A DNA stretch of 64,000 nucleotides from Eubacteriales bacterium (lineage in GTDB: Bacteria > Bacillota > Clostridia > Oscillospirales > CAG-272): assembly GCA_045533505.1 (NCBI GenBank), contig JAZSHY010000025.1:20274-84273 (forward strand), written 5' to 3'. The position numbers were made by a program, and so were the translations under genes. The notes below the pieces were generated by a model that saw only the letters and a list, made by a program, of their open reading frames with translations, did not search any database and was not told the origin of the DNA. This document shows positions 21,101-34,861 of the stretch, piece by piece; positions within the stretch are counted from its first letter, which is position 1; each line of letters starts with the position of its first letter.

Positions 21101-22255
21101 GCCGGCGTCGCTGACACTCTTAAAATAGAGCGTGGATTGAGACCATCTTCCGCTGGCGCTGGATGAAACGTTTTTAGTCGTATTCACCCACTCCCCGGCG
21201 GCTTCGTCATATTTGTACCAGGCAAAGCTGCTTTTGGAAAGGCCAAGCGCATAGCCGGAGGCCCGCAGAGAGTGGTATTGAACACCGTCAAAGCTGTTTT
21301 CGGCCTTAAACGTCCAGTCGTAGGAATCCTCAAAGCTGCAGCTGACGCTCGAACCGAAGGTCCACTGCGCAGTCGCTCTGTAAAGAGTGGCTTCTTCGGG
21401 CGTGAAGGTATCTCCGGGCTTAAAAGCACCCACGGCAACCCATGCTTGGGCATCGACGTCGTATCGGCTCAGCATCCAGTCCACAAACTGATAGCCGTCA
21501 ACCGAATAGGTGTTTTCGGGCAACACGTAGGGGCTGCCGTCAGCCGCAAAGGCTTCGTTGACGGTAGCCGCAGAAAAGCCGTCTGAATACATAACGGCTG
21601 CATAGCCGTCGTTGGGCAGCCACATGGCGTAATATCTGTCGTGCTCCTTAGATTGACGGTGCGTGCAGACAGAGCCGTTCAGATGCGGATTGTTGAACCA
21701 GCCGCCAAAGGTGCAATTCTCCTTGACAAAGTTGGTAGCAAGCACGCCTGCCTCATCGGTCAGGCTGCCGTGGAGCACCCCGCCGTTTGTGTTCGCAACC
21801 GACGCGGTTTTATCAAACGTGCAGCCTCCCCCCTCGTTGCCGCCCTTCAGCAGGGCTTCCAGCGCAGGGTTCGCAAAATATATCACGCAGGTATTTTTCA
21901 TTTCCACAAAAATCGGATTGTTCGGGGAGCCGCTCGCTACGCTTGACAGAGTATACGGCAGATATATCTGCGTAGCGGCAGAGCCGCGGAACGAGGACGA
22001 CTGCAAATAATTAACCGTGTAGGTGAAATCTCCGTTGGTCACGGTCTCGGGCATAATGACGGCACCCACAGTATCCTTACCGCCCGAGCCGGGAACATAG
22101 GCCGTGCCCGTTTTGCTTCCTGCGTCCTCGGTGCTGACGCGATATTTCACTCCGTCATAGTGGAATTCATCTCCCGATGCAGCCAAACCGGTTATTGCCA
22201 AGCTGCCGGCAAGAAGAACCAAAGCCATTACCAAAAAACAAACCTTTTTCTTCAC
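18185..22255 (-). CDS. large cell-surface protein: signal peptide, BspA-like LRR region, Listeria-Bacteroides-type repeats, MBG-like repeats, coiled-coil stalk and C-terminal TM anchor
   Basis: GTG at 22255 with GGGAGA about 9 nt upstream gives MKKKVCFLVMALVLLAGSLA. Repeats include FGGWFNNP and GYQFVDW. A recurring pattern is AG(E/T)Y(T/Q)V...EGD(A/E)(N/D)Y. An Ala/Glu-rich heptad-like stalk ends in GLAILVVVGDLTLALFILIRRRRL. Confidence 0.75.
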   Translation of the reverse strand: MKKKVCFLVMALVLLAGSLAITGLAASGDEFHYDGVKYRVSTEDAGSKTGTAYVPGSGGKDTVGAVIMPETVTNGDFTYTVNYLQSSSFRGSAATQIYLPYTLSSVASGSPNNPIFVEMKNTCVIYFANPALEALLKGGNEGGGCTFDKTASVANTNGGVLHGSLTDEAGVLATNFVKENCTFGGWFNNPHLNGSVCTHRQSKEHDRYYAMWLPNDGYAAVMYSDGFSAATVNEAFAADGSPYVLPENTYSVDGYQFVDWMLSRYDVDAQAWVAVGAFKPGDTFTPEEATLYRATAQWTFGSSVSCSFEDSYDWTFKAENSFDGVQYHSLRASGYALGLSKSSFAWYKYDEAAGEWVNTTKNVSSSASGRWSQSTLYFKSVSDAGRYKCVISVTQNGVTYSVEDETVVRLSPATITVTPKPQTVVKGGSIDTVASATTVTVSGNQSDLKTATIYGKLSLVTNGSIDSSVPGIYENAITLVDGGVEALSENYIFVLNAEGGDLTVKETPTFTWNAENVYSYTYQGKPITPILSATVNGTEALGAPTGSVTYLYNGSETVPTAAGEYTVTAVYEGDANYDKGTAECPEKLVIGKADVSIAVKSQSLSAGNPLPALGIQDLIVTSDTLSKEALSSFKEALAAAISEGRLTFSFLDGDGNPVTTAPAAGTYTIVPVISDEDSASLDENVTPLIIHADTSGGTDVGQLTVKSEMTITASDMEAVFTGEGLPYDTSLIQVDANGYLQQLSLLYYIDYEWVEQAPLEAGTYQVRIYFEGDEDYMPASTTVKMTVLPACVTVVAKDKTIGEGDDLASAVFTVDDVEIVAEGVTDEIKQMIREYLAMMMEYQMAYPCFDGTGAASGIGRHEDGVTFRFIIGDTMYTLDEMRALNYIPITPDIARALNLDYLFEQLIVEFEKGDRIVKKKPTVELVATGDISVQDADSELQAEGIDKIFTTEMTMSPVILTAENLLIHGGDGMPAPTGAVTVLYRHAADDDEFLAPDNYPVSMGHYVVRIIIEEDNNYARTEYTTLVFVTAARLTVAAKPQAVDVNGTVNQTHTAIQLSGRILSNDEMKALLEEALPALFECGALCVSVAPSVNMQQAGLYREGIVVSYYPERMTGDMADAAMLFEILPVAADLTVYSYSEDFSAVKNRIDGLESAQSDLAALLAAKADASELAAAIEELSSKIAEAKEDSDIRDAALEVELRQAIEAADAAISEAVAALVTRVEGLAQDVALLISSKADAAAVAQKFTETEAAIHTLQTLLSEYGDAVADTKAETEALVEAAKAEIVAMILAGDNATSAALRQELSELREELGKKNENAEKDSVGTYGTVTGLAILVVVGDLTLALFILIRRRRL

Positions 22256-22546
22256 CTGGTATACTCTCCCTTGCTTTATACGAATCAATTTAATAAAATC
22301 AATTGTACACTATAACCTCCTGTGATTCAATTCTGCTTCTCCCCGAAAATATCTTCTGTTGATGGCAACGGCTTTGTGCAAGTTCAACAAAGAATGCTTT
22401 ACGCGATAAAAAAAGCCCCGAAGGCATAGGGCTTTCAAGGCTTCTTATTGTGCAGGGAAGGATGCGCCGCGGAGAATTTACGTCCTTGCCGTCGAAGCAT
22501 CTTGGCAACGAGCGCCATAGGCATATAGCCGAGGTCAAGGCAAGTC

Positions 22547-23692
22547 TTACGCCTCAAAAACGGTTTTTCCCCGCTTTATCGTTCTTTGAATACGGAAGTC
22601 CTCGTCTGCAATGATAATGTCGGCGTCATAGCCCGCGAGGAGCGCGCCCTTTCCCTCGGCGCCGATGGCGCGCGCGGGGGCGAGGCTGGCCGCCGCCACC
22701 GCCTCGGGAACGCTGAGCGAAGTGTGCGCGAGGAGATTGCGAACCGCTTCATTGAGAGTGAGCACCGAGCCCGCGATGGTGCCGTCGGCAAGACGGCATT
22801 CGGTGCCCCTTACGAATATCGGCTGACCGCCGAGCTCGTATTCGCCGTCCGGCATGCCGCCCCCTCTTGTGCAGTCGGTGATAAGACAGAGCTTGCGCCC
22901 CTTCTGCCCCGCAACAAGAGAGAAAAGCCCCGGGTGAATGTGGAAGGTGTCGCAGATAAGCTCAACCGAAACATCGGTGGTGAGAGCCGCGCCGACAACA
23001 CCGGGCTCACGGTGGGCAAGCGGCGTCATGGCATTGAAGAGGTGCGTCACGTGGCCGACGCCGTCCCTGACCGCCGAAACCGCCTCCTCGTAGCCCGCAG
23101 CAGTATGCCCCATGGAAAGGAGAATATCGGTCTCGCTCGCTATCCTCTTGATGACGGCATGCCCCTCGTCCATTTCGGGAGCAAGCGTCACAATGCGAAG
23201 AATATCCCTGTTTTCAAGCAGAAGCTCCGCATTTGGCTTCTCAATACATTCCTTCCTCTGCGCGCCCCGCCTTGCGGGGTTAAGGAAGGGCCCCTCCGCA
23301 TGAACGCCGAGTATCTCGGCGCCGCCCCACGTGCGGGACTCCTCCCTCAGCTCCCTTGCCGCAGAGAAGGCAGCCGCAAGCTCCTCCCGCGAGACGGTCA
23401 TGGTTGTCGGGAGGAAGGCGGTCACGCCGTTTTTCACAATGCCGTTTGCGATTTTGCGAAGCCCCTCGGGCCTCCCGTCGGAGGCGTCCTCCCCGAGATA
23501 GCCGTGAATATGAATGTCCACAAGCCCCGGTGCCACATAGCTGCCTGCCGCGTCGATAACGGCGGCACCCTCACACACGGCGTCCTCTATCCCGACGATT
23601 TTGCCGCTTTCACTGTCAAAGGCAAGCAGCCGGCCCTCCACCACCGAATCGGGGAGAACGATTTTGCCGCCTCGTATGTAGGTCATAGCCAT
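22547..23692 (-). CDS. nagA: N-acetylglucosamine-6-phosphate deacetylase
   Basis: PGLVDIHIHGYLGED metal-binding motif and 381 aa of amidohydrolase pattern. Confidence 0.85.
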   Translation of the reverse strand: MAMTYIRGGKIVLPDSVVEGRLLAFDSESGKIVGIEDAVCEGAAVIDAAGSYVAPGLVDIHIHGYLGEDASDGRPEGLRKIANGIVKNGVTAFLPTTMTVSREELAAAFSAARELREESRTWGGAEILGVHAEGPFLNPARRGAQRKECIEKPNAELLLENRDILRIVTLAPEMDEGHAVIKRIASETDILLSMGHTAAGYEEAVSAVRDGVGHVTHLFNAMTPLAHREPGVVGAALTTDVSVELICDTFHIHPGLFSLVAGQKGRKLCLITDCTRGGGMPDGEYELGGQPIFVRGTECRLADGTIAGSVLTLNEAVRNLLAHTSLSVPEAVAAASLAPARAIGAEGKGALLAGYDADIIIADEDFRIQRTIKRGKTVFEA

Positions 23693-23732
23693 TCCGCTTC
23701 ACTCCTTGTTAAAAGCTTACTTTTCCGCTTCT

Positions 23733-23761
23733 ATTATAACACAGGCAACACGCTTTGTCAC
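23733..23761 (-). promoter_or_regulatory. sigma-A type promoter (extended -10) for nagA
   Basis: On the minus strand: GTGACA (23761-23756), 17-nt spacer ending in TGt, then TATAAT (23738-23733). Confidence 0.45.
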
Positions 23762-23816
23762 TACTGTTTTCATAAAAACCCCAAAGTACTCCCTGCCGCC
23801 CCCTCGGAAAGACACA

Positions 23817-23850
23817 AAGGGGAGCACCCCGAAAGAGCTGCTCCCCTTGC
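23817..23850 (-). terminator. terminator at the distal end of the fibre locus
   Basis: The minus strand reads aaggggagcagctctttcggggtgctcccctt followed by a T-rich tract. It lies about 55 nt after the 23905 stop. Confidence 0.5.
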
Positions 23851-23904
23851 CGTGTGCGGGCGGGATACGGCATCGCCCGCTGGCAGACGATACCGTCTGT
23901 TTCT

Positions 23905-24240
23905 CTATTTCTTTTTCGCTTCCTCACGGCTCTGCTCAACCGCGCGGAGAACCTGCTCATCGGTAAGGTCGCTCCCCCATTCCGCGTCCCTTCGCTGCTT
24001 CCTTGCGCATTCGACGCAAACCTGGCCAAGCCCTACCTCATAATTCTCACGCCAATCTATCGGCAGGGAAACGGGAACAGAGGTCATTTTCCCGCACACA
24101 ATGCACCGTTCAAATTTCTCATTGACGGTGGCTCCGCTCAGACTGTGGCTCTCCCCCTCGGAGGGGCGTTGTGCCCTTCTCCTCCGAAAAGCCCAGGATA
24201 TGGCAGCAAGGATACCGCGTTTTTTTCGTTTTCTTGCCAT
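23905..24240 (-). CDS. hypothetical zinc-ribbon protein (CxxC...CxxC), last gene of the fibre locus
   Basis: Basic N-terminus, CIVCGK...CVECARK cysteine pairs, acidic/basic tail. AGGGA RBS. Confidence 0.5.
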   Translation of the reverse strand: MARKRKKRGILAAISWAFRRRRAQRPSEGESHSLSGATVNEKFERCIVCGKMTSVPVSLPIDWRENYEVGLGQVCVECARKQRRDAEWGSDLTDEQVLRAVEQSREEAKKK

Positions 24241-24303
24241 GTAAGTTCCCTTTCAGCGAATGACAGCCATCCCGTACCGAATAAAACGCAAATGCAAACA
24301 ATA

Positions 24304-25728
24304 CTATACTTTTTTGCTGTATGCCATAAGAAAAACAAGCACGGTGCCGCTAACAGCTGTCAGAGAAACCCATAGAACGAGGGTTGTGTTATCGGCAGCT
24401 GCGGGCGCGTCGGGAAGCTCTGCGTCATAGATGTTTTCAAATGTTGCACTCAAGGAATCCGCACTCTCACCGTCCATGGTGAAGGCGGCAATCAATTCGT
24501 TGCTTTCGTTCAGGAGCACGGTAACCGTGATTTCATGCACGTCGTCATCGTACGTCATGCCCGCAAGGCCCTCGTTGATTTCGGAGAGCTCGTAGGTATA
24601 GGTCTTGCCTATGTCTGCCCCTGTAAAGCTCAGAGAGAAGGAGGCCCTGCCATTGCCGTCGGAGGTTGCTGTGAGCCCCTCGGAGGTTGCTGTGTTTTTC
24701 AGCACGAACCGAAAACCGTCCGCCCCGTGTCGGGCCTCGCCTATGCTGTTGACAAGCTTATGAACAAAAATCGGCACGGTAATGGGTTCAGGCTCAATAG
24801 CTTCAGGGGGCAGGAAGGTATTGTTGAATGTGACGAAAACCGCATGCCCCTCCTGTGTTTCGGTTATCTCTGCGTTCTCGGTGCCCGAAACGGTGTTGAC
24901 CTCCAGGCTTCCGTCCATATCCGTGTCGGTCACAAGGACGGTAAAGTGATTGACGGTTTCGTCGCAATCCGCGTCAGACTCTCCGACGACCTCTCTCATG
25001 CGGAAGGTGTAGGTGCCGACCTTGTCAAAGCTTAGCGCCCGAAAAATCTCATTAAAGGAGAACCGATTGAAATCTGCCGCCGCGCCGTAGGTCACGGTCT
25101 GCTCGCCGAGCCTCGTCCAGCTCTCGCCGTCCTTCTGCTCCAACACGAACGTGAAGCTGTCGCCGTCCTGCCAGTCGCGCCCCTCCAGGAGCTTGACGCC
25201 GCCGACGGTGACGCGGCTCGGCTGCACGGCCTCGGGAGAATAGGTGTTCACAAAGGAAACGCTTGCGTCGCCGTCCTCCCCCACCGTTACCGTCCTTTCG
25301 GCCTCGCCCTTCACAGCAAAGCCGTCAAGCGCTGTGGGCTTCTCGGTCACCCGTACAACGGTGCCCTCCGCAAGGCCGAAAAGCCCAAAGGTGACACCCG
25401 GCTTGACGGTAACCGTCAGGGTGCCGCCTTCGTCGGCGGTGAGAGCCCCCGCGGTTGTTTCCAGCCTTGCGCCCGCATAGCGGGCCCCAAGCTCCACTTG
25501 AAAATCAAAGCTGATATTGTCGGGAAGCACATACCCATCCCCAAGCGGATGCTCCACCGTCTTGCAAAGCGAAAGCCTGCCCGCCTCTGCCGTGCCCGGA
25601 ACGAACACACCGGTCAAGGGCTCTGTCTTCGCCACGATGTAGCAATAGGTGGTTCCTATCGTCGATACCATCAGCAAAAAAAGCGACAGCACCATTGCTA
25701 TTCTTCGTATACCTGTTCCTTTTCGCAA
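24304..25728 (-). CDS. pilin-like protein: SipW-type signal peptide, three pilin isopeptide-type (Spy0128/CnaB-like) domains and a C-terminal TM anchor
   Basis: TTG start with GGAGGAGG 8 nt upstream. N-terminus is LLMVSTIGTTYCYIVAKTEPLTGVFVPG. Three repeats each end in F-x-N-x-(Y/F): SFVNTY, TFNNTF, TFENIY. Each has an upstream K and an F-x-F-x-L strand. The C-terminus is LPDAPAAADN, then a 21-aa hydrophobic helix, then KKV. Confidence 0.7.
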   Translation of the reverse strand: MRKGTGIRRIAMVLSLFLLMVSTIGTTYCYIVAKTEPLTGVFVPGTAEAGRLSLCKTVEHPLGDGYVLPDNISFDFQVELGARYAGARLETTAGALTADEGGTLTVTVKPGVTFGLFGLAEGTVVRVTEKPTALDGFAVKGEAERTVTVGEDGDASVSFVNTYSPEAVQPSRVTVGGVKLLEGRDWQDGDSFTFVLEQKDGESWTRLGEQTVTYGAAADFNRFSFNEIFRALSFDKVGTYTFRMREVVGESDADCDETVNHFTVLVTDTDMDGSLEVNTVSGTENAEITETQEGHAVFVTFNNTFLPPEAIEPEPITVPIFVHKLVNSIGEARHGADGFRFVLKNTATSEGLTATSDGNGRASFSLSFTGADIGKTYTYELSEINEGLAGMTYDDDVHEITVTVLLNESNELIAAFTMDGESADSLSATFENIYDAELPDAPAAADNTTLVLWVSLTAVSGTVLVFLMAYSKKV

Positions 25729-25835
25729 AACCTCTGCCTCCTCCTATCTCGTGAATAAGGCTCGCCGCCATCGGAAGCCGCGTGCCGCAAAGCCTTGCCT
25801 TTACCCCTGTGATTGTCGATGGGGGTGTCACTCGC

Positions 25836-26555
25836 TTATTTCCACGGACAGCCCACACGGCTAAAGGCACCGCTGTCGCTCACTGTCTGACTGTGGACCA
25901 GAATCTCGTATTTCCCATCGCCGTTGCCGTAAAGCCGATTGACGACATCGCGGGAAACGCTGCTTCTCAGCAAAATCTGAAGAAGGCAGGGGGGCGTTGT
26001 TTCGCCCGCGTTCAGCTCTTCGTTATACTCTGCGCAGACAACGGCGTATTTTGTGTCCCCGATTTTCACTCCCCACTCAAGCTCGCTCCATGTCCAGTCG
26101 GTGGAATTTCGGTTAAGAAGAACCGCCCTCCTGAATTCCTCCTCGGAGAGCTCGCCCATTTCGAAGGCAAACCACGTGCGGATATAGCCGCCCGTATTGC
26201 CTGTATTGGTAACGGCAACAATATGGTCCCGTGCATTCTTGACGGTATACATTTCCTCCCGCGAAGAAAGCGAGGTCTTAACCGTACGGTTCCCGTTGTC
26301 GGTCACCGAGAGCTCCGCCGCAAGCAGCATACTCTCCGGCTTTGGATTTTCTTCTGTTATCGGAAGCAGCATGGGCACCTCCGAGACAGGGCGCAGCCCT
26401 GTGCCGTCACGCTCCAGCTCAGACTGAACGATGGATAAGTACGGCGTGCCGGCGCGGAGGTCGCCGAGCGAGCCGTAAACCGCAACCACGGTCAGCAGTG
26501 CCAAAAGCGCGGTTATTCCCATCCATTTAATGACATTCAACACGTCATCTCCCAT
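25836..26555 (-). CDS. TasA/camelysin-like protein with an atypical N-terminus
   Basis: The core VTNTGNTGGYIRTWFAFE parallels VENTGKTDAYVRTIIAFE and VENTGKSDAYYRTLIALE in the two large paralogues. The C-terminus YEILVHSQTVS parallels YDILVASQAIQ. The ATG overlaps the upstream stop (TGATG). Confidence 0.65.
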   Translation of the reverse strand: MGDDVLNVIKWMGITALLALLTVVAVYGSLGDLRAGTPYLSIVQSELERDGTGLRPVSEVPMLLPITEENPKPESMLLAAELSVTDNGNRTVKTSLSSREEMYTVKNARDHIVAVTNTGNTGGYIRTWFAFEMGELSEEEFRRAVLLNRNSTDWTWSELEWGVKIGDTKYAVVCAEYNEELNAGETTPPCLLQILLRSSVSRDVVNRLYGNGDGKYEILVHSQTVSDSGAFSRVGCPWK

Positions 26556-26782
26556 CAATCGTGATTCTCATAGCGGATAAACGGTATGACGGAGAGCCAC
26601 AAGCGCCGCCTCCGGCGCCTCCAATAGCGCTGCGTACTGCCGCCTGTTCTGCCGATTTCACTGTTCAGGTATCTCAGCTCACTGCGGAAGCCGTGCAGCC
26701 AATACACAAAGGCAGCCAAAAAGCCAAAGCCCATCGCGGCAACGAGCAATCCAACCAATATCCAAAATCCCGTATCTTCCAT
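26555..26782 (-). CDS. small single-pass membrane protein with an Arg-rich tail
   Basis: 75 aa. FWILVGLLVAAMGFGFLAAFVYWL is a TM helix, followed by RYWRRRRRRLW. The gene is translationally coupled to the downstream gene. Its RBS is weak. Confidence 0.45.
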   Translation of the reverse strand: MEDTGFWILVGLLVAAMGFGFLAAFVYWLHGFRSELRYLNSEIGRTGGSTQRYWRRRRRRLWLSVIPFIRYENHD

Positions 26783-26826
26783 TTACCGAGGTCTCTCTTT
26801 TCTTATCAAAGGGGAATTGCCTTTCG

Positions 26827-26896
26827 GCAAGCAAGTGACACAAGGCGCGCTTATGCCCCTTGCTTGCCGCCCATCTCCACGAGGGGAGATGGGCGG
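26827..26896 (-). other. structured intergenic element inside the fibre operon (two adjacent strong hairpins, no T-tract)
   Basis: Stem ggcaagcaag (26827-26836) pairs with cttgcttgcc (26859-26868). Stem ccgcccatctcc (26867-26878) pairs with ggagatgggcgg (26885-26896). Confidence 0.4.
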
Positions 26897-26930
26897 AGCC
26901 TGCTTGGCTTACCTGCTCAAGCAGAACGGG

Positions 26931-28643
26931 TTACTGAGGCTGTTCGATAGGTTCCCAGCCACCGTCAGCAAGATATCTGCCGAGCTCGCCGTGAAAGACA
27001 CCGCCGGTAACGGTAACATTCTCGCGGGTGCTCTTGTCGCCGCCGCCGAAGCAAACGTCACCGATAAAGGTGCCGCCTGTAATTTGGATGTTGGTGCCTG
27101 CAAAGCTATCGCCGTACGAATAGGAGTACACGCAAACGTCGGTCTCCGTGTTGGTGCAAATCAGCTCACCGCCGTTGATGGTCAGATTTACGGGGCGAAC
27201 GTTGTTGATATTGCTGCCGGGCAGCTGAACCCAAATGGCACGCTTGCCGGTAACGGTGCCGCCATTGACAGTGACGTTGGTAGACAGGGTGTTGGAATTG
27301 CAGAACATACGGATGGCGCACTTGCCGACGCCGTCAATAACACCGTCGTTAACGATAAGCTCCGAGCCCTGATAGCAATCGATTGCATAGGAAGCACCGC
27401 CGGGGGCAGTAACATTCTTTACGGTAACGCCATCTATAATCAGCTTGCCCTCACACTTGATGGTGTTGTTGGCATAGCCGGGGAAGGCGGGCTGGCCTTC
27501 GCCGCCCCAATTGATGTCGGGGGTGGTGGCGCCAAAGGTAACAACCCCGTCGCCGGTCAGGGTGAGAGCGGCACCGGCCTTAACCGTAATCATCGCAGAA
27601 GCCGAGGCGTTTGTGGCAACGCCGGAAACCGTGTGGCCGTTTGTGTTCAGCACGGCATCCCCCGTCACGGTCAACGGCGCATCGGTAAGTGTGATGTCAT
27701 CGGTAAGGATAACCTCTCCGCCGTCGGCAAGGGCAGCCTTCAGCTCATTGGCAGAGGACACGAGCGCGGGAAGCTTCACTCCATCAGTCCAAGGATGGTT
27801 CGTGGTGGTGATATCTCCAAAGCCTGCATCAAGAGCTGTTTCGGCATCAGCAAAGCCTGCCGTCTGAATTGCCTGAGAAGCAACAAGGATGTCGTAAGCA
27901 CCGTTCTTGTTGCCGTCAATCGCTTCAACGGTCTCGTTGGTAGCTGCGGCCTTCATGTAAACCTGTGCAAGGCTGGGATAGGTGGTGTCGCCGGCAGGCA
28001 GAACGCCATTTTCATGAACGCCGCCAAAAGCCTTTGCGCCGTTGTAGATATACTCGGAAACGAAATAATTGTTGCCGTCAATCGCAGCAATGCCGATGTC
28101 CGTTACCTTCCAGACACCCTGTGCCGTCATGAAGCTGCTCGTTCCGATGAAAGCATCAAACTCATCCTCAGTCAAAGAACCGATTTCGAAAGCAATAATA
28201 GTACGTACATAAGCGTCGGTTTTACCGGTGTTTTCCACGGTTACGAATTTGTCCTGAACGTTCTTATTGACGAACACATCCATAGAGCCCTGGGAGCCAA
28301 CCTGGGACATTTTAACGCGGGTGCTGCCATAATCACCGGCACCGTAGTTGTAGGGAAGGCCATTGGCATCGATTTCAGTAGCAGGCAGCAGAGGCTTAGC
28401 CTGAGAGAAGTCCTTCAGCACATAGCTTGTTACACCGTCGATTTCTTCGGTCTTGTAAGTGCCGTTTTCAACAACACGCTCGTATTCGTGCTGCTCGATT
28501 TTGACGTTGCCGAGCGTCATAACGCTGACCGCGCTGTCCTCGCTTGTCAGATAGGCCACGGTGCCGCCGATGGCAAGTGCCGCAACCAACACGCAAGCGA
28601 CGCACAACAGAAGTCCTTTTTTCAGCTTTAAACCTTTAGACAT
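26931..28643 (-). CDS. TasA-like N-terminal domain fused to a right-handed beta-helix adhesin-like module (570 aa)
   Basis: ATG at 28643 with AAAGGAGA upstream. Signal peptide ...LVAALAIGGTVAYLTSEDSAVSVMTLGNVKIEQHEYER. TasA-like core runs to SQAIQTAGFADAETALDAGFG. The C-terminal half has repeating G-rich beta-helix turns (NGGTVTG, NGGELIC, TGGTFIG, TGGVFHG). Confidence 0.75.
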   Translation of the reverse strand: MSKGLKLKKGLLLCVACVLVAALAIGGTVAYLTSEDSAVSVMTLGNVKIEQHEYERVVENGTYKTEEIDGVTSYVLKDFSQAKPLLPATEIDANGLPYNYGAGDYGSTRVKMSQVGSQGSMDVFVNKNVQDKFVTVENTGKTDAYVRTIIAFEIGSLTEDEFDAFIGTSSFMTAQGVWKVTDIGIAAIDGNNYFVSEYIYNGAKAFGGVHENGVLPAGDTTYPSLAQVYMKAAATNETVEAIDGNKNGAYDILVASQAIQTAGFADAETALDAGFGDITTTNHPWTDGVKLPALVSSANELKAALADGGEVILTDDITLTDAPLTVTGDAVLNTNGHTVSGVATNASASAMITVKAGAALTLTGDGVVTFGATTPDINWGGEGQPAFPGYANNTIKCEGKLIIDGVTVKNVTAPGGASYAIDCYQGSELIVNDGVIDGVGKCAIRMFCNSNTLSTNVTVNGGTVTGKRAIWVQLPGSNINNVRPVNLTINGGELICTNTETDVCVYSYSYGDSFAGTNIQITGGTFIGDVCFGGGDKSTRENVTVTGGVFHGELGRYLADGGWEPIEQPQ

Positions 28644-28706
28644 AGTATATATCTCCTTTTCATATAAGTCTGAAGGGCACGGGGGCGCCCTTTTCAAACC
28701 CTTTCA

Positions 28707-30602
28707 TTATTGATTGTTGTAAATAACGGTAACACCCTCGTACGTCTTTAAGCCTTTAACGCCGTACTGATCGCCGCCGAAGATCTGGTCGAACGGGATT
28801 AGTTCCATATGGTGAGTTGTACACTGCGAATGATCGTAATCGGCGGGAAGGCCGCCATACGCATAGCCGGGCTCAACACGCATGCCGCGGCCATTGTTAT
28901 GACCGGGAGTAGGATCGCAGTAGTGATAATTTGCCCAATCACCGTATGTAACGGTTACGTTTTTGCAGGTGATGTTGTATTTGCTTGTATCGGGATAGTT
29001 AGCTCCGTCAATCGTCGTGGTTTCCGCCAAGCGTCCGATAATCATACCGCACATACGGTAGTTGTAATAGTCATAGGATGCGGTGCAGTCATTGTAAACG
29101 TCCAGACGGCAAGCGATATCTACGTTTTCAAAGTTGTAGGTAGCGCCGGGCTCGGCCTGGCCGACAATGCCGCCTGCCGAGCTGTCAAAGGAGCCCCAAA
29201 GGCCGCCTATTACAACATCCTCGCCAAGGGTGATATTCTTGAAATTATAGGTACCGGCACCCGACCAGCCGATAATACCGCCAATTCCGTTGTTATACGT
29301 TCCGATGCTGCCGCTCCTGATTTCGATGTTTTCGAAGGTGCAATCACCGGTTGCGCTGCCTGCGATAAATGCGATATCGCCACCCTCTACCTGGCAGTCA
29401 AAGCCTTCAAGAACAACGTTTTTGACGGTTGCTCCTTCAAGTTCAGAAAACAAGCCGATGGAGCCATACTTTCCCCATTCGTAACCGAAATCCCAACCGC
29501 TTTGGTAAAGGCTTGCGATGGTCTTGCCGTTCCCGTCAAAGGTCCCCTTGAACGGCTCTGTTATCAGCCTGCCGCTGCTGTCTCTCTCCGAGGTGGAGCC
29601 AATCGGCGCAAAGCTTTCGCCGCCAAGGTCAATATCCACACCAAGCGTTATGGTTTTCCCCTCGAAGTTGTTGCTGTCTTCCGCGACGAGTGCCGCGAAG
29701 CCGGCAAACTGCTCGGCAGAAGACAAGGTGAACTCCGTGTCGGTTGCGTTGTACCAAGAGGTGTCGGCAGTACCGTCCCAAGCATCCACAGAATGCTTGG
29801 CAACAACACCTTGGAACCACTCGGCGGCGGCTTCATCCGTCACATCGCCAAAGCCGGAATCCAAAGCGGTCTCGGCATCGGCAAAGCCCGCTGTCTGAAT
29901 TGCCTGGGAGAGAACGAGAATCTCGTATGTATCGCCAAGCAACGCCATATCCTCGTTGGTTGCATTGTGTGTCAAAACCACCTGAAGGAGAGAAGGACGG
30001 GAAACCTCACCGGGAGTCAAGCTTTCGTTGTAGGTGGCACACCACACCTCGTAGCGTGTTCCTTCAACGGTGATATAGCCTACGCTATAATCCCAAGTAA
30101 AACGGGAGTTGCCGTTGACGTTGACATTGATTTCATCATCATCGGAGTAGCCGATTGTCATACCCTCGGGGCATTCCAGAGCAATCAGCGTGCGGTAATA
30201 GGCATCACTCTTGCCGGTGTTCTCAACGAACACAAACTTATCCATCACATTTGAAAGCTTGCTGTCGTTCCAAAGACCGTTCCAGCCCGGGCTGTAAACA
30301 CCCCAGTGGAAGCAGCTGCCTTCGGCCTGCTCGGCCTCGTAGGCATCCTCTGCCGTAGGGACTGCGGGATAAAGGAGCTGCCCCTGAACAAAGGGAACAA
30401 GCTCGCCCTCCTGTGCTCCGGCATTGATATGGCCGACGCCCTCGGCACGCTCGTATTCGTGCTGCTCGATTTTGACGTTGCCGAGCGTCATTACGTTGAC
30501 GGCGCTGTCCTCGCTTGTCAGATAGGCCACGGTGCCGCCGATGGCAAGCGCCGCAACGAGGACAAGACCGAGGCATGACAGAAGCATGGTTTTGAGTTTC
30601 AT
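28707..30602 (-). CDS. TasA-like N-terminal domain fused to a GLUG-like repeat / beta-helix module (631 aa)
   Basis: The N-terminus is near-identical to the 26931 gene. The core reaches SQAIQTAGFADAETALDSGFG. The C-terminal half has SAEQFAGFAALV, GIGGIIGWSGAG and SAGGIVGQAE motifs of the GLUG type. Confidence 0.75.
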   Translation of the reverse strand: MKLKTMLLSCLGLVLVAALAIGGTVAYLTSEDSAVNVMTLGNVKIEQHEYERAEGVGHINAGAQEGELVPFVQGQLLYPAVPTAEDAYEAEQAEGSCFHWGVYSPGWNGLWNDSKLSNVMDKFVFVENTGKSDAYYRTLIALECPEGMTIGYSDDDEINVNVNGNSRFTWDYSVGYITVEGTRYEVWCATYNESLTPGEVSRPSLLQVVLTHNATNEDMALLGDTYEILVLSQAIQTAGFADAETALDSGFGDVTDEAAAEWFQGVVAKHSVDAWDGTADTSWYNATDTEFTLSSAEQFAGFAALVAEDSNNFEGKTITLGVDIDLGGESFAPIGSTSERDSSGRLITEPFKGTFDGNGKTIASLYQSGWDFGYEWGKYGSIGLFSELEGATVKNVVLEGFDCQVEGGDIAFIAGSATGDCTFENIEIRSGSIGTYNNGIGGIIGWSGAGTYNFKNITLGEDVVIGGLWGSFDSSAGGIVGQAEPGATYNFENVDIACRLDVYNDCTASYDYYNYRMCGMIIGRLAETTTIDGANYPDTSKYNITCKNVTVTYGDWANYHYCDPTPGHNNGRGMRVEPGYAYGGLPADYDHSQCTTHHMELIPFDQIFGGDQYGVKGLKTYEGVTVIYNNQ

Positions 30603-30680
30603 TGGTTATCTTTCCTTTCAAAAATATAATTTCGGGTATCGAACAGGCTTCCCCTTTTCATCTTTGCCTATGGCAGTGGC

Positions 30681-31364
30681 TCAGCTGCCGCCGGGGCCGA
30701 TGAGAGCCCAGGCTTCCGCGGCGGAGTCAATGGCGTCGATGTCGGCATCGCGCTGTACGGCATAGCCCGTGACGGTCATCCTCGGGTAGTTGCCGCTGTG
30801 AAGCTCCCGAAGCATTTCCCCCGTTACGCTGTCCTTGACTTTGACTTCGTCGTTCTTTAATACAGAGAACACCTTGTCTTCTGCGCTCGCGTCTGTCGCA
30901 CGGAAGTAAACACCGGGAGTGCCCTGTAAGGCCGTCCAGCCGTCGGCAACGGCATATTCGATGTAGTCGCCGAGGGCCTTGTCGCCGGATTCCCGAATCT
31001 CCACAAACAGCCAGCAAGCCTCGCTGTCAGCCAATACGGAAATCTTCGTGTCCTTTTCAATCGTCTTGCCGGGTGTCATCTTGAAATAGCGTCCGTCGCT
31101 CAGCACCTCGCCCTTCGTTTCGGTGAGGGTTATGCGGATATCGCCGTAGGTGAACACGTTGACGACGGGGTCGGTTCGGGCTGTCAGCCACGCAAGAGAG
31201 CCGCCAATCACGGAGAAGAGCACGAGGCAGGCCGCAAGAGTCATGAGTGCCGCCCTGAGGGCAGGGCCTCTGCCGCGATGGCCTTCCCCGCGAGAATGTT
31301 TTCCGAAAGACATGGGTTGCGTTTCTCCTTTCTCTTTATTTTGTATTTCAGTAAGCGGAGGCAT
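30681..31364 (-). CDS. TasA/camelysin-like secreted protein with a SipW-type signal peptide
   Basis: ...LAACLVLFSVIGGSLAWLTARTDPVVNVFTYGDIRITLTE. ATG at 31364 has GGAGG 7 nt upstream. An alternative ATG at 31313 follows AAAGGAGA. The ORF-track start at 31457 would overlap the upstream gene. Confidence 0.7.
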   Translation of the reverse strand: MPPLTEIQNKEKGETQPMSFGKHSRGEGHRGRGPALRAALMTLAACLVLFSVIGGSLAWLTARTDPVVNVFTYGDIRITLTETKGEVLSDGRYFKMTPGKTIEKDTKISVLADSEACWLFVEIRESGDKALGDYIEYAVADGWTALQGTPGVYFRATDASAEDKVFSVLKNDEVKVKDSVTGEMLRELHSGNYPRMTVTGYAVQRDADIDAIDSAAEAWALIGPGGS

Positions 31365-31395
31365 GTCGCTTCCTCCGTTGCTTGAAGCGTAAGGA

Positions 31396-32037
31396 TTACT
31401 TGGAGAACGCCGACCATGCCTCATCGGCATCGGCAAAGCCGGCTGCCTGAACCGCATGCGCTTCGACGGTAATTTCCAAATCAGAAACGGCGGCGAGCTG
31501 CGCGCCGTTCATAGCCGAGGGAACGGTTATCGCGTCAAAGAGCGCATCGAGAACAAGGTCAGCGTCCTTCTCCGCCCTGACGGTATCGAAATAGCGGAAC
31601 TCGTAGATTGCCGTGCCTGCCACCTCGTCCTTGACAATGGCATCGGTGGCAACCCACACGGAGCTATCCCAGCCCGCAACAAAATACCGAAGCAGGAAGG
31701 GTTCGCCGAAGATGGCCGACAGCTCGTCGTAGCAGCTGACGGTGACAAGCATACGGACATAGGCCTCCTCGCTCCCCCTGAGAACAGTAACCGTAGGGTC
31801 CTTGGTGTAGGTCTTGCCGGGGACGAGATGATACGCGTTGCCGTCCTCGGTTCTGCCACCGATTGGCTCTCCGCGTTCGTTCACGGCAGCTTCATCAAGC
31901 TTCAGGTGCACCTTGCCCACGGTAAAGGTATTGACGACCTCGTCCGTGTCCTGTAAATAGGCAACAGTCCCGAGAACGGCTGCCGACACCAGGAGAACAG
32001 CACACAGCAGGAGGAGTATCGGTTTGGTTTTTTTCAT
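31396..32037 (-). CDS. TasA/camelysin-like protein, candidate major fibre subunit (213 aa)
   Basis: MKKTKPILLLLCAVLLVSAAVLGTVAYLQDTDEVVNTFTVGKVHLKLDE is the SipW-cognate signal pattern. It is single-domain and sits first after sipW. AAGGAGA RBS. Confidence 0.75.
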   Translation of the reverse strand: MKKTKPILLLLCAVLLVSAAVLGTVAYLQDTDEVVNTFTVGKVHLKLDEAAVNERGEPIGGRTEDGNAYHLVPGKTYTKDPTVTVLRGSEEAYVRMLVTVSCYDELSAIFGEPFLLRYFVAGWDSSVWVATDAIVKDEVAGTAIYEFRYFDTVRAEKDADLVLDALFDAITVPSAMNGAQLAAVSDLEITVEAHAVQAAGFADADEAWSAFSK

Positions 32038-32067
32038 TTCGGATTCTCCTTTATGGTCATTTTGTTT

Positions 32068-32577
32068 TCATGTTTTATCGTCGGTGACAGCGTCTACCGT
32101 CATCACGAAAACGACAGCCGCCATTGCCACGCCGATGGCAACGTAAAGCCCGGGCGGATTTTGGATATACATAGAAAGATACCCGAGAAGCGGAATACAG
32201 AAGATTACCTTGCCTTCAACCTGCTCAAATTCCACAAGAGCTCGGTCAAAGTCGTCGTTGTTATCTCCCTTGGTGCGAAAACGGACGATGCCGGGATCGT
32301 CCTCGTCGGGAACGAGCTCCTTGATTCGGTGGGTGGCTGTGGTCGTATCGGTTATCCGATAGGTAATGACATCCCCCTCCTTCAGGCTTGCGGGGTCGGC
32401 ATCCGCAAGATAAATGAGGGAGCCTGTGGGATACGTCGGCTCCATGGACGGAGAAAGAACCGCGAGAACGTCAAGGCCTGCGATTCTGACGCCCACAAGG
32501 AGAATGGCAAGGAGCACCACCAGAATCACAAGGGAATGGGAGACAAGCCTTAATGCTCGTTTTAAAATTCGGTTCAT
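32068..32577 (-). CDS. sipW: signal peptidase I, SipW (archaeal/ER) type
   Basis: N-terminal TM helix, catalytic Ser box LSPSMEPTY, His box ATHRI, KGDNN box, and a C-terminal TM helix. Confidence 0.85.
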   Translation of the reverse strand: MNRILKRALRLVSHSLVILVVLLAILLVGVRIAGLDVLAVLSPSMEPTYPTGSLIYLADADPASLKEGDVITYRITDTTTATHRIKELVPDEDDPGIVRFRTKGDNNDDFDRALVEFEQVEGKVIFCIPLLGYLSMYIQNPPGLYVAIGVAMAAVVFVMTVDAVTDDKT

Positions 32578-32601
32578 GTCTCTGTTCGCTCACACTCTCT
32601 T

Positions 32602-33189
32602 TCAAACCGCAGCTTCCTTGAAATACTGCTCAACCGAACGGTAAATCACACGGAACACATGCTCGCTGTAATCGTCATCCTTATTCATTCTGTCACAATG
32701 CACCTTCACGGCAAAATCCAGCATCACGTTCAGCACGTGGTTGAGAATCATCCACGTGTCGGCCTCGGCCCTGAAGGCATCCCGGAATTTTTTCACAAGC
32801 GGCGCATACCGTTGCTTATGCGCCTCGTAGGAGTATTTTTCGAAATACGGGGAATAATAATAACGGACAAAGGCAAGACACCTTTCCCTGTTGCCGAGAA
32901 GGAACCCCCACATTGCCGCAAAGAAAAGCCTGCACCGCTTTTCGTACCCCAGCTCTTGCCTGTACATGACCTCCACGTGCTGCAGCGCTTTTGCCACAAG
33001 CTCCTCGTCCAGCCTTTCAAAGGCGGTTGAGAGAAGGTCCTCCTTATCCTTAAAAAAACGGTAAATATAGGCTTCGTTGATGTCGGTTCCCTTGACAATG
33101 GCCTTCGTCACGGTTTTATCCAAGCCGTTCTCGGCAATGACTGTAATTGTCCTGTCCATCAGTCTGTTTCGCACATCATAGTGCTTCAC
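32602..33189 (-). CDS. TetR/AcrR-family transcriptional regulator
   Basis: The HTH region is ITVIAENGLDKTVTKAIVKGTDINEAYIYRFFKDKEDLL. GTG at 33189 has AAGGAGG 9 nt upstream and is preferred over ATG at 33213. Confidence 0.75.
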   Translation of the reverse strand: MKHYDVRNRLMDRTITVIAENGLDKTVTKAIVKGTDINEAYIYRFFKDKEDLLSTAFERLDEELVAKALQHVEVMYRQELGYEKRCRLFFAAMWGFLLGNRERCLAFVRYYYSPYFEKYSYEAHKQRYAPLVKKFRDAFRAEADTWMILNHVLNVMLDFAVKVHCDRMNKDDDYSEHVFRVIYRSVEQYFKEAAV

Positions 33190-33330
33190 GGGAAATGGCC
33201 TCCTTTTCTGCATTGTTAAGTGTTTGCTACTTTTGTGACAGAAAAATAAGCAGACAGCTCCCCCTTCGGTTCCTATGCCTCGGTTTTACGAACATGACGA
33301 ACACACGGAGGCTGTCGGCCTCGCAACATA

Positions 33331-33346
33331 TTCGCAGAGTTATCCC
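33331..33346. repeat. left arm of a 16-bp perfect inverted repeat (IR-L)
   Basis: ttcgcagagttatccc. Its exact reverse complement occurs at 34784-34799. Confidence 0.85.
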
Positions 33347-33423
33347 CTATGCAACGGTGGATAGGAAGCCGCAGTCATACAGGGCCTGTTTTGGATTTTG
33401 ACGATTTTCTTTGACGGCTAAAA

Positions 33424-34530
33424 TCAAAGACCGACGGCAGAAAGCTTGTCCATATTGGCCCGCTTCAAGGCGAGAGAGGAATGCACATAGCGGTCCAGAG
33501 TGACCTTGGCGCTGGCATGGCCGAGGATTTCACTCAGCGATTTGATTTCAAAGCCGACCTCAACGCACCGTGTGGCAAAGGTGTGGCGGAGCGTATGAAA
33601 ATGCACGTCCCTCAAGCCGCAGGCCTCCGTGTATTTTGCAAGACGGTATTGCAATACACGCGGCTCAATATAGCGAAGCGGTTCGCCCGTCAGCACGTAG
33701 GCCTTCCCGTTAAAGACATGCATTCGCTTGCACAAATCAAACGCCGAGGCACTTAACGGAATCTCTCTTTTTGAGGTTTGGCTTTTAGCTTCCCCCACGG
33801 TGATTTTGGTTTTTGCGCTTGAGGATTTGTCAAGAATTTGCAGCCTCTGCATGGTAGAGGAAACACGAATCACGCGGTCTGCCACCAAAATGTCCTCCCA
33901 TTTCAACGCGCAAACCTCTCCGATGCGAAGCCCGGTAAGCAGCGCGAGCAGCACCCCGAACCTCACCTCGTCCATATCGGACAGCAGAAACCGAATAAAC
34001 CGCTGCTGCTCCTCCGGAGTCAATACGCGCATCTCCCTTTTGCGTTCCTTGGGATAAATCACCTCAATGTCGGGGAAGCCTTCCCCTATTTGCCGTCGGC
34101 AATGTCTGAGAACAGCCTTTAACACCACCAAAATGTCGCGAACGGTTTTCGGCGACAAGCCGTCCGATAGCAACGTATGGGAAAACTCCTCAATCAAGAC
34201 GGTGTTGAGGCTTTGAGGAAGATATCCCCCAAGAGCCGGTTCTAAGTGCCGCTTGACCGTGTTATAATATTTTACGTAGGTTGACTCCTTCACTCTGCTT
34301 CGGGACAGCGTGAGCCACTCGGCACAGAAATAACGGAGGTCCCGTCTGTTGGAGGCGGGCCTCGTGTGTCCTGCTTGCTTGGCGGCAGTCAGCTTTTCTC
34401 TGACCTCGCGGTAGGTTTTTGCGTAGACATACCCGAAGCGCGTCTTGCCTCTGCCGTCATACCCCTTGATATAACGCCCTTCCCATCGGTTGTCCTTGCG
34501 CTTGTAAATGTTTTCGCCTCGTCTTGCCAT
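33424..34530 (-). CDS. tyrosine site-specific recombinase/integrase with an N-terminal Arm (AP2-like) DNA-binding domain
   Basis: N-terminus YKRKDNRWEGRYIKGYDGRGKTRFGYVYAKTYREVREKL. Catalytic residues are intact: LLTGLRIGEVCAL (R), HFHTLRHTFAT (HxxR), LGHASAKVTLDRYVH (H...Y). Confidence 0.85.
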   Translation of the reverse strand: MARRGENIYKRKDNRWEGRYIKGYDGRGKTRFGYVYAKTYREVREKLTAAKQAGHTRPASNRRDLRYFCAEWLTLSRSRVKESTYVKYYNTVKRHLEPALGGYLPQSLNTVLIEEFSHTLLSDGLSPKTVRDILVVLKAVLRHCRRQIGEGFPDIEVIYPKERKREMRVLTPEEQQRFIRFLLSDMDEVRFGVLLALLTGLRIGEVCALKWEDILVADRVIRVSSTMQRLQILDKSSSAKTKITVGEAKSQTSKREIPLSASAFDLCKRMHVFNGKAYVLTGEPLRYIEPRVLQYRLAKYTEACGLRDVHFHTLRHTFATRCVEVGFEIKSLSEILGHASAKVTLDRYVHSSLALKRANMDKLSAVGL

Positions 34531-34717
34531 GTCTCTAAACTCCTTATTATAAAATTGGCAGCACCTCGGAGCGAGGAGCCGCGTATGCCACGCGTATGCG
34601 ACGGAACTGACGGCTTATTTGACGGAAAACCGTTGTAAAAACCCCACAAACACCGCTATATCAAGCACCGTCGGAATGTAAAATATGAACGAAAGGGAGC
34701 CGTTTTGCAAAAAAACC

Positions 34718-34746
34718 TTGCTTTTTTCTCGGTTTTGTGGTAAAAT
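34718..34746 (+). promoter_or_regulatory. extended -10 sigma-A type promoter facing outward across IR-R
   Basis: TTGCTT (34718-34723), 17-nt spacer ending in TGg, then TAAAAT (34741-34746). Confidence 0.45.
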
Positions 34747-34783
34747 TAAGTGAAATTGCAGGGAGAACCGCACCCTCTCAGAT

Positions 34784-34799
34784 GGGATAACTCTGCGAA
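34784..34799. repeat. right arm of the 16-bp perfect inverted repeat (IR-R)
   Basis: gggataactctgcgaa, the reverse complement of 33331-33346. Confidence 0.85.
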
Positions 34800-34813
34800 A
34801 AACAGGCGTCTGT

Positions 34814-34846
34814 ATCACGCATTTCCTGATGCGTGATTTTCTTTTT
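34814..34846 (+). terminator. rho-independent terminator 15 nt beyond IR-R
   Basis: Stem atcacgcat (34814-34822), loop ttcctg, stem atgcgtgat (34829-34837), then tttcttttt. Confidence 0.6.
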
Positions 34847-34861
34847 ACTAAAAAGCAAAAA

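Follow-up and report, generated by a model that had tools for sequence, protein, structure and literature searches.

A predicted phase-variable TasA-like fiber locus with a SipW-type peptidase and an upstream invertible recombinase segment in a clostridial genome

Results

A ten-gene sipW operon and an adjacent invertible segment

The DNA analyzed here, referred to as the window, is a 64,000-nucleotide (nt) stretch of an Eubacteriales genome (contig JAZSHY010000025.1, positions 20,274 to 84,273 of the forward strand). The subject of this work is a ten-gene operon on its minus strand (23905–33189), which encodes a SipW-type signal peptidase together with a group of TasA-like secreted proteins, and a 1469-bp invertible segment directly upstream (33331–34799), which harbors its own tyrosine recombinase gene. 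A preliminary description of this DNA had reported the ten co-linear genes, their short spacing and a TGATG stop/start overlap; the open reading frame (ORF) listing and an inspection of the start sites bear out this arrangement, and the intergenic gaps are 24 to 148 nt. The invertible recombinase switch, the most distinctive feature of the locus, had gone unnoticed.

The first gene of the operon, tetR (32602–33189, minus strand; 195 amino acids (aa)), encodes a TetR-family regulator (PF00440, 33.5 bits); its GTG start stands directly after AAAGGAGG, at the same point where conservation across related loci begins. It is followed, all on the minus strand, by sipW (32068–32577; 169 aa), which encodes an archaeal/ER-type signal peptidase I, and by two TasA-like small subunit genes. 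Small subunit 1 (31396–32037; 213 aa) carries a SipW-type signal and the motif VVNTFTVG, and small subunit 2 (30681–31313; 210 aa) carries VVNVFTYG; both are instances of xVxNxFTxG, termed here the donor-strand motif. Large subunit 1 (28707–30602; 631 aa) comprises a TasA-like module (residues 1–250) and a β-rich payload domain (approximately residues 270–631), and large subunit 2 (26931–28643; 570 aa) a TasA-like module with the motif AVSVMTLG and then a repetitive C-terminal domain. Next come a 75-aa membrane protein with an N-terminal transmembrane helix (26555–26782), the stop codon of which overlaps the start of the next gene (TGATG), and a 239-aa TasA-like core protein (25836–26555) that has an N-terminal hydrophobic segment and lacks the donor-strand motif. 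The last two genes encode a 474-aa FctA/Spy0128-type protein (24304–25728), with a SipW-like signal, an N-terminus that resembles a donor strand, DUF7601, two FctA domains, a C-terminal transmembrane helix and a KKV tail, and a 111-aa zinc-ribbon protein (23905–24240), with a CxxC...CxxC pattern and a basic N-terminus. The operon ends at a terminator hairpin (23819–23846, minus strand) made up of a GC-rich stem and then UUUGUGUCUUU, in a region with a z score of −4.0.

Most of these gene lengths are as first described. The second small subunit, initially put at about 227 aa, is refined to 210 aa on the basis of its ribosome-binding site and of its length as called in contig L082, the nearest relative, with 31364 as another possible start. 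L082 is approximately 90% identical to the window across the whole locus, and its independent gene calls equal ours in length for eight of the ten genes and are shorter for two (562 versus 570 aa and 222 versus 239 aa). The 474-aa gene starts with TTG, which is kept in its orthologs. Within the 64-kb window, motif-bearing N-termini are confined to this locus.

The archaeal-type assignment of SipW and its Ser/His boxes, made from the sequence at the outset, stand up well. The peptidase scores 87.9 bits against TIGR02228 (cut-off 51.85), and the boxes SPSMEP, THRI and GDNN are found at residues 42, 82 and 104 (Ser/His/Asp). It does not reach the Bacillus SipW equivalog NF046067 (87.7 bits versus 190), and exact-sequence look-ups found neither this SipW nor the window recombinase on record.

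Both orientations of the recombinase segment occur in closely related genomes

The segment at 33331–34799 consists of an inverted repeat, a promoter region, the recombinase gene and a second inverted repeat. The recombinase gene (33424–34530, minus strand), directly upstream of tetR, encodes a 368-aa tyrosine recombinase (PF00589, 86.3 bits; PF14659, 31 bits) in which the catalytic R, HxxR, H and Y are present (motifs HTLR, LGH and RYVH). The operon-proximal arm of the inverted repeat (33331–33359, perfect core 33331–33346) and the distal arm (34771–34799, core 34784–34799) are complementary at 83% over 29 nt, and the inversion breakpoints lie here. The perfect 16-nt core, TTCGCAGAGTTATCCC, has just two exact copies in the 64 kb.

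The orientation evidence comes from assembled contigs of different assemblies. Contigs L082 and L083 match the window in flanks and operon (~90% identity) and have the 1469-bp segment reversed; opposite orientations between collinear flanks likewise distinguish L003 from L001 and L002 (99.6–100% identity), L004 from L005 (93%) and L001 from L009 (98%). There are thus four independent opposite-orientation pairs, of 89–100% identity, with breakpoints within the 16-nt repeat core: both orientations of the segment occur in near-identical genomes, and the breakpoints fall in the inverted repeats. Contig L003 ends 75 nt inside the segment, which is suggestive only as regards switching within a population. 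Perfect flanking repeats of 14–31 nt are found in 13 of the 13 loci that have the recombinase, and its orientation relative to the operon is divergent in six loci and co-directional in 10, the window included.

A single ORF between terminal inverted repeats has the superficial look of an insertion sequence, and the segment is present in only seven of the 41 loci with enough flanking DNA for features to be counted. Both observations would suit a mobile element or a fixed rearrangement that arose separately in several lineages, by insertion or inversion, and does not regulate the operon, as would the third copy of the repeat that some loci have, about 100 nt beyond the segment; an assembly artifact might also be considered, the orientations having all been read from different assemblies. 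We regard this reading as very unlikely. Despite identities of only 44–79% between the recombinases, the position of the segment upstream of the operon never changes; the four independent pairs, one of them at 99.6–100% identity, have collinear flanks and breakpoints exactly in the repeats; the outward promoter described below is kept while its spacer varies; the adjacent leader lacks a promoter; and the repeat core has no further exact copy in the 64-kb window. Fixed position, repeat-exact inversions and a conserved promoter led us to judge an insertion sequence unlikely, and the recombinase as the mark of a prophage or integrative island was rejected on the grounds that it is a single, repeat-bounded gene at a fixed position upstream of the operon.

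Two further sequence features of the segment deserve mention. The third copy of the switch repeat has the same orientation as the distal one and is found at 7132–7151 in L004, 1419–1434 in L009, 281–296 in L082 and 264–279 in L083; it could permit alternative inversions or may be the scar of a past recombination. Separately, CCGTCA/TGACGG motifs flank the recombinase gene at 33412–33417, 34608–34613 and 34620–34625 and are conserved in related loci (GCCGTCAAA...CGTC). The recombinase has an N-terminus that looks like an arm-binding domain, and the motifs are candidate arm-type sites for it.

A predicted outward promoter and the predicted state of the switch

Beside the repeat on the 5′ side of the recombinase gene is the best-conserved noncoding element of the segment, a predicted outward sigma-A promoter (34718–34746, plus strand; TTGCTT, 17-nt spacer, TGg-TAAAAT) that is antisense to the recombinase gene. 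Hexamers of the form TTG(C/T/A)(A/T)(A/T), a 17-nt spacer and a TATAAT-like element recur in 12 of the 12 aligned recombinase-bearing loci; the spacer sequences vary and the hexamers are kept, a TGn extension is present in 11 of the 12, and the L082 copy reads TTGCTT-17-TGaTAGAAT. Just outside the distal repeat is an intrinsic terminator, a hairpin followed by a T-run (34814–34837, plus strand; −16.2 kcal/mol, z −4.9, none of 200 shuffles as stable). In the window, the promoter points away from the operon and toward this terminator.

Because the promoter faces the operon only when the recombinase is divergent and the window is co-directional, the window copy is predicted to be OFF or low. The contig pairs establish the inversion itself, whereas this polarity is inferred; we conclude that the operon is probably phase-variable. 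Some caution is in order: the ON/OFF call rests on a consensus promoter; no convincing terminator follows the window recombinase gene (z −0.8), so that read-through could give some operon expression; and since loci that lack the switch must have a promoter in a related leader, a basal promoter may exist in the window as well.

The missing terminator between the recombinase stop codon and the proximal repeat would also fit the opposite polarity: the co-directional arrangement of the window would be ON, by read-through that starts at the recombinase promoter, and the divergent one OFF. Co-directional copies do outnumber divergent ones among the loci examined, by 10 to 6. This we think unlikely, given that the best-conserved noncoding element is a near-consensus extended −10 promoter directed outward from the recombinase 5′ end, that the recombinase gene is followed by a clear intrinsic terminator in six loci or more, and that in the window the outward promoter meets a strong terminator within approximately 70 nt. 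We therefore retain divergent as the predicted ON orientation.

Between the switch and tetR is a conserved leader of 140 nt (33190–33330, minus strand), the conservation of which exceeds noncoding expectation. An alignment of seven loci reveals that it holds a GAGGC(N5)GCCTC hairpin and an AT-rich palindrome (33227–33250), the latter of which may be a TetR operator. A scan for sigma-70-like promoters was empty in 12 of 13 leaders, and the window leader is without one. In loci that lack the switch, another perfect palindrome, ACAAACG-N5-CGTTTGT, occupies the same place in the leader and is likewise a candidate TetR operator. In switch-less loci L006, L008, L018 and L020, the gene upstream of tetR encodes a small CxxC...CxxC cysteine-rich protein, with the type of motif found in the 111-aa zinc-ribbon protein of the window.

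Five operon proteins share a TasA-like module

Of the six TasA-like paralogs that had been proposed, we find five (213, 210, 631, 570 and 239 aa); the 474-aa protein is of the FctA/Spy0128 type and is alike only in its N-terminus. The broader claim of a SipW-linked cluster of TasA-family proteins is borne out through hidden Markov model (HMM) matches of orthologs. Within the group, blastp relates the 570- and 631-aa proteins (36% identity over 450 aa, E 4e-49), the 239-aa protein and residues 94–281 of the 570-aa ORF (E 5e-21), the 213- and 210-aa proteins (E 1e-10) and the 213- and 631-aa proteins (E 2e-8), and the 631-aa and 213-aa families align by hhalign with a probability of 99.6% (E 6e-25, residues 1–249).

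The link to TasA is through PF12389 (Peptidase_M73, TasA/camelysin), for which the gathering cut-off is 22.5 bits. At E ≤ 0.01, 45 of 68 orthologs of the 213-aa protein match this model, the best with E 2.7e-7. It is also matched by 15 of 67 full-length homologs of the 631-aa protein, among them P0194 at 36.5 bits. P0145, which shares the 631-aa C-terminal domain, scores 32.1 bits over profile positions 3–187 of 196. AlphaFold2 models of the 213-aa protein (mean predicted local distance difference test score (pLDDT) 79.5; a β-sandwich with helices) and the 631-aa protein (pLDDT 87.0) were compared with the PDB by Foldseek, and for the 631-aa model the archaeal pilin AbpA (7UEG) ranks third (E 0.022), the best match being 3n6z, a Bacteroides domain named "putative IgA1 protease" (E 4e-3).

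Several results weigh against a TasA assignment. Among the window proteins, the best PF12389 score is 18.3 bits (213 aa, residues 11–52 only), below the cut-off, and for the other four modules nothing is found at E ≤ 0.1; PF12389 matches are in general mostly limited to the N-terminal 50–75 residues. Neither structural model has a PDB match at E ≤ 1e-3, and for the 213-aa model cohesins lead, TasA falls outside the top 50 and cohesin-like sandwiches equal any score. A comparison by hhalign of the 213-aa and 631-aa family profiles with TasA, the sequence of which was verified as PDB 8AUR, is not significant (E 0.16–0.79), and a PDB-sequence search with the 213-aa and 631-aa proteins and the 213-aa family profile gave no relevant matches. 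That non-significant alignment places L.PG..TKD on TasA LKPGDKLTKD, and a gap-free reading sets GTVA-YLQD..NTFTVG beside GTWA-AFND..ATFASG of TasA. Of the TasA fold or HMM match that the preliminary description had proposed to seek, the HMM match is thus found in orthologs; the fold search is weak and the window copies stay below the cut-off. We conclude that the five modules are probably remote members of the TasA/BsaA superfamily, an assignment that rests on the HMM evidence from orthologs and not on fold.

The SipW-cognate N-terminus had been assigned to five products, which holds only in part by TIGR04088 (cut-off 19). The 213-aa and 631-aa proteins pass (28.1 and 20.5 bits), the 210-aa and 570-aa proteins do not (13.9 and 14.9 bits), and the 239-aa and 474-aa proteins have no match, as is also true of the N-termini of FctA-type orthologs. 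A custom HMM built from 119 TasA-like N-termini gives 13.9 bits for the N-terminus of the window 474-aa protein (maximum over 440 shuffles, 6.0), 5.9–25.5 bits for the FctA-type orthologs and 0.6 bits for the 239-aa N-terminus.

Donor-strand motif, candidate isopeptide triad and payload domains

Across related loci, the Asn of the strand motif xVxNxFTxG is conserved in 93 of 94 instances. The 213-aa protein is the most conserved subunit; its family has an invariant K79, with N36 and E49 each kept in at least 90% of members, and these three residues may form an isopeptide triad like that of BsaA, the fiber subunit of Clostridium perfringens. Only in the window/L082 lineage is the donor-strand Asn replaced, by Ser in the 570-aa protein and by Gly in the 474-aa protein (LTGVFVPG).

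At their 5′ ends, the genes for the 570-aa and 631-aa proteins share a 154-nt direct repeat of 86% identity (28475–28628 and 30446–30599), which encodes near-identical signal peptides and donor strands and is consistent with gene conversion or a recent duplication. The C-terminal domains of these two proteins match no Pfam family when searched in isolation. By its sequence, that of the 570-aa protein reads like a parallel β-helix, and its homolog in L001 has a faint PF13229 match. Residues 291–628 of the 631-aa protein (window 28707–29732) share 74% identity over 343 residues with the C-terminal part of P0235, a 924-aa DUF6562 protein encoded in a Bacteroidales-type fimbrial locus (DUF3575 and several DUF6562 genes; loci L087/L088, 6001–8775), and the same domain is also found behind Flg_new and Mfa2-like N-termini. 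This distribution suggests that the payload domain was recently exchanged between phyla and between different fiber scaffolds.

An FctA-type protein with a TasA-like N-terminus

The 474-aa protein matches PF12892 (93.9 bits, two stretches), TIGR03786 (77.2 bits) and DUF7601 (36.7 bits). The C-termini of its orthologs consist of xPxTGD, a transmembrane helix and a basic tail; the LPXTG-anchor model TIGR01167 gives one ortholog 18.9 bits against 15.9 and three others about 14 bits. The C-terminus of the window protein has no match to the anchor model. In the window/L082 lineage the sorting motif of the orthologs reads PA(A/T)AD, with PAAAD in the window copy in place of PPTGD, and a motif search for sortase ORFs (TLxTC) found none in the 64-kb window; sortase-like ORFs are present in two of approximately 80 related loci. 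These points, along with the Asn replacements, weigh against the fiber model proposed below. Parts of the system may be degenerating in the window lineage, given the Asn losses and the lost xPxTG, and the changes shared with L082 may reflect relaxed function or a shift to non-covalent, membrane-anchored assembly.

The two remaining small proteins are conserved partners of the 239-aa and 474-aa genes. The 75-aa membrane protein has a conserved tail, ELxYLNxEIxRTxGxxxRYW...LWxSxIPFxxY, kept in 11 loci, and the zinc-ribbon gene is kept downstream of the FctA-type gene in nine loci.

The locus is widespread in gut Clostridia

The 213-aa protein has 6,836 homologs at E ≤ 1e-3; among the 120 matches listed, none has a Pfam assignment, nor does the window copy, and the sole name given is "hypothetical protein." A scan of species-representative genomes yielded 77 loci, nearly all in metagenome-assembled genomes from gut or rumen and belonging to Oscillospiraceae, Acutalibacteraceae, Lachnospiraceae, Christensenellales and Peptococcaceae; a single cultured strain, Pseudoflavonifractor sp. 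MSJ-30, is among them. In the 41 well-flanked loci, sipW is immediately upstream of the 213-aa homolog in 40 and a second small subunit comes next in 39. The other genes are less regular: FctA-type gene in 17, tetR in 10, zinc-ribbon gene in seven, recombinase in seven and 75-aa gene in six, with zero to five large paralogs per locus. Since sipW and two small subunits are found in nearly all loci and the accessory genes vary, we take sipW and the two small subunits to be the core, and the window to be one of the fuller versions of the locus. One locus (L077), on a contig labelled Bacteroides uniformis, encodes a homolog of the 213-aa protein at 37–38% identity, which may reflect a binning error or transfer out of Clostridia.

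Neighboring features

Past the operon, the next gene encodes an amidohydrolase of the NagA type and has a strong promoter match of its own. Just downstream and outside the operon is also a 1367-aa protein (18185–22288, minus strand) with an N-terminal signal-like segment, weak MBG/Ig-like domain matches, a coiled-coil-like alanine-rich region and a C-terminal transmembrane helix; it looks like another large surface protein. An Rfam scan for riboswitches (e.g., c-di-GMP) over 22000–36000 found none. Its sole match, to ctRNA_pGA1 (34840–34908, plus strand), is below threshold (27.6 bits versus a gathering cut-off of 45) and was judged spurious, since the 29-nt perfect-stem hairpin at this position is more readily explained as a terminator for the ABC-transporter gene upstream.

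Discussion

A model of fiber assembly

We consider it fairly probable that the locus encodes an extracellular fiber of the TasA/BsaA family that is processed by SipW and whose expression is phase-variable, the switch being an invertible promoter element upstream with a tyrosine recombinase gene of its own. In the model that we propose, the outward promoter (34718–34746, plus strand) would drive transcription of tetR, sipW and the subunit genes only in the divergent orientation of the recombinase gene; in the window orientation it would run into the terminator at 34814–34837. SipW would remove the signal peptides and so expose the N-terminal strand xVxNxFTxG, which would insert in the next subunit, as in TasA and BsaA. 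The 213-, 210-, 631- and 570-aa proteins have both strand and core and so can be internal subunits: the 213-aa and 210-aa proteins would form the shaft, with the 213-aa protein as its proposed main component, and the 631-aa and 570-aa proteins would join through the same module and display their C-terminal β-rich payloads, probably for adhesion. The 239-aa protein, which has a core but no donor strand, can only accept and would cap one fiber end, a role like that of the tip adhesin of chaperone-usher pili. At the other end, the 474-aa protein, with its donor-like strand, isopeptide-domain stalk and C-terminal anchor, would tether the fiber to the cell, by a sortase-type signal in the orthologs and by the membrane helix only in the window lineage. 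The near-universal donor-strand Asn and the conserved Glu and Lys may form an intermolecular isopeptide lock of the BsaA kind.

A heteropolymeric fiber of several paralogs, as the preliminary description had envisaged, is plausible from the gene content, and its division of labor into major, minor, tip and anchor roles would fit the presence or absence of the donor-strand motif. It counts against the model that donor-strand exchange, subunit order and isopeptide lock are all deduced from sequence. The paralogs may instead form no joint fiber, each being an independent SipW-exported surface or matrix protein, or its own homopolymer, grouped with the others by a common peptidase and common regulation. 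The number of large paralogs, zero to five between loci, is as expected if they are exchangeable cargo and have no fixed place in a structure; unrelated N-terminal modules also carry the 631-aa C-terminal domain; and C. perfringens BsaB is reported to dimerize but to stay out of BsaA oligomers (PMC11580942). Against this, one donor-strand motif runs through the modules (Asn in 93 of 94 instances), the locus has acceptor-only and donor-plus-anchor members that are hard to explain without pairing between subunits, and TasA-CalY heterofilaments exist (PMC13082335). We therefore consider separate proteins rather unlikely and prefer the joint fiber.

More tentatively, and with considerable doubt, the locus might represent a hybrid class of Gram-positive fiber in gut Oscillospiraceae and related Clostridia. 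Such a fiber would combine a TasA-type donor-strand shaft, possibly Asn-Lys locked, with a donor-less cap, exchangeable payloads and an FctA/CnaB stalk that is plugged in by a TasA-type strand and attached to the wall by sortase in most lineages, and it would be turned ON and OFF by a self-encoded tyrosine-recombinase inverton.

Significance

Most of what is known of TasA-type fibers comes from Bacillus biofilms, with C. perfringens and archaea as recent additions. The approximately 6,800 unnamed homologs in conserved sipW-linked gut loci point to a common, unannotated surface structure of hard-to-culture commensals. The inverton provides a simple genetic handle: its orientation can be locked, the ON/OFF state can be read from metagenomes, and that state can be linked to host or phage pressure. 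The distribution of donor strand, acceptor core and anchor predicts a definite order of assembly, and a 74%-identical payload in a protein of a Bacteroidales fimbrial locus suggests an exchange of adhesive modules across phyla and across unrelated fiber scaffolds in the gut.

What seems to be undescribed so far is the family itself, widespread in the gut, along with its arrangement of donor, acceptor and anchor and its predicted regulation by an inverton that encodes its own tyrosine recombinase. The preliminary description had called the system uncharacterized in Clostridia, which is only partly true: the sipW-bsaA-bsaB-bsaC operon of C. perfringens has already been studied (PMC7395162, PMC11580942), and it is this gut family that seems undescribed. 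Nor is the idea of several paralogs in a heteropolymer a new concept, with BsaA and TasA-CalY as precedents; operons with several BsaA/TasA paralogs beside LPXTG/SpaA-domain genes have been noted and heteropolymers suggested (PMC11580942). Among the papers listed by a literature search, none joins sipW with phase variation or invertible elements, and a gut-inverton survey makes no mention of TasA, pilins or signal peptidase.

Comparison with known systems

The closest known system is the C. perfringens bsa operon, which is likewise clostridial, starts with sipW and continues with more than one remote TasA homolog. In BsaA, the N-terminal strand inserts in the next subunit and is locked by an N35–K74 isopeptide bond, the formation of which is catalyzed by E56 (PMC11580942). 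An N-terminal strand Asn that inserts and is locked to Lys with the assistance of Glu is also proposed for the window proteins, in which N36, E49 and K79 are the putative counterparts of N35, E56 and K74. The bsa fibers lack LPXTG and are apparently membrane-associated, which we count as a further likeness. The window differs in the number of its TasA-like modules, which is five, in the large payload domains to which two of these are fused, and in a donor-less member; in having an FctA-type stalk protein where bsa has the von Willebrand A protein BsaC; and in its TetR gene and invertible recombinase switch, bsa expression being reported as temperature-regulated.

The tapA-sipW-tasA operon of B. 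subtilis and the sipW-tasA-calY operon of Bacillus cereus with CapP (PDB 8AUR and 5OF1; PMC9674648, PMC13082335) share with the window a dedicated SipW and a SipW-type signal (TIGR04088). The TasA strand exposed after SipW cleavage inserts in the next subunit (PMC9674648), and in B. cereus TasA and CalY co-assemble as heterofilaments with the help of CapP (PMC13082335). Polymerization by donor-strand exchange and the co-assembly of paralogs are likewise proposed for the window proteins. No TapA or CapP homolog was detected, however, and the profile match to TasA is not significant; the window also has more paralogs and architectures and would be regulated by DNA inversion rather than by SinR/SinI. 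AbpA (PDB 7UEG; PMC9245690), the third-best PDB match of the 631-aa model, is a donor-strand pilin of the TasA superfamily. The match is weak (E 0.022, template modeling score 0.26 normalized to the target), and AbpA is an archaeal, single-subunit pilin without a payload domain.

A second set of resemblances is to the sortase-assembled pili of the Streptococcus pyogenes FCT locus (Spy0128/FctA). The 474-aa protein likewise has two FctA isopeptide domains, and its orthologs end in an xPxTG motif, a transmembrane helix and a basic tail. In contrast to FctA pili, a sortase gene is absent from the window and from nearly all related loci, the window copy has no recognizable sorting motif, and the N-terminus consists of a SipW-like signal and a TasA-like strand rather than a standard Sec signal. 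As the 474-aa gene is single and stands beside TasA-like subunits, its product is more likely to be a stalk or anchor than a polymerizing backbone.

Finally, the upstream segment resembles the invertible switches of E. coli (fimS with FimB/FimE) and Salmonella (hin-fljBA), the RecV-dependent switches of Clostridioides difficile and the invertons of gut bacteria (PMC11892184, PMC11868660), in which repeats flank a promoter segment beside genes for surface structures. As in known invertons, a site-specific recombinase is present and both orientations are found in closely related genomes. The window recombinase shares its tyrosine type with those of fim and its place within its own segment with hin, and the window switch is set apart from the known ones by an output promoter that is antisense to the recombinase gene.

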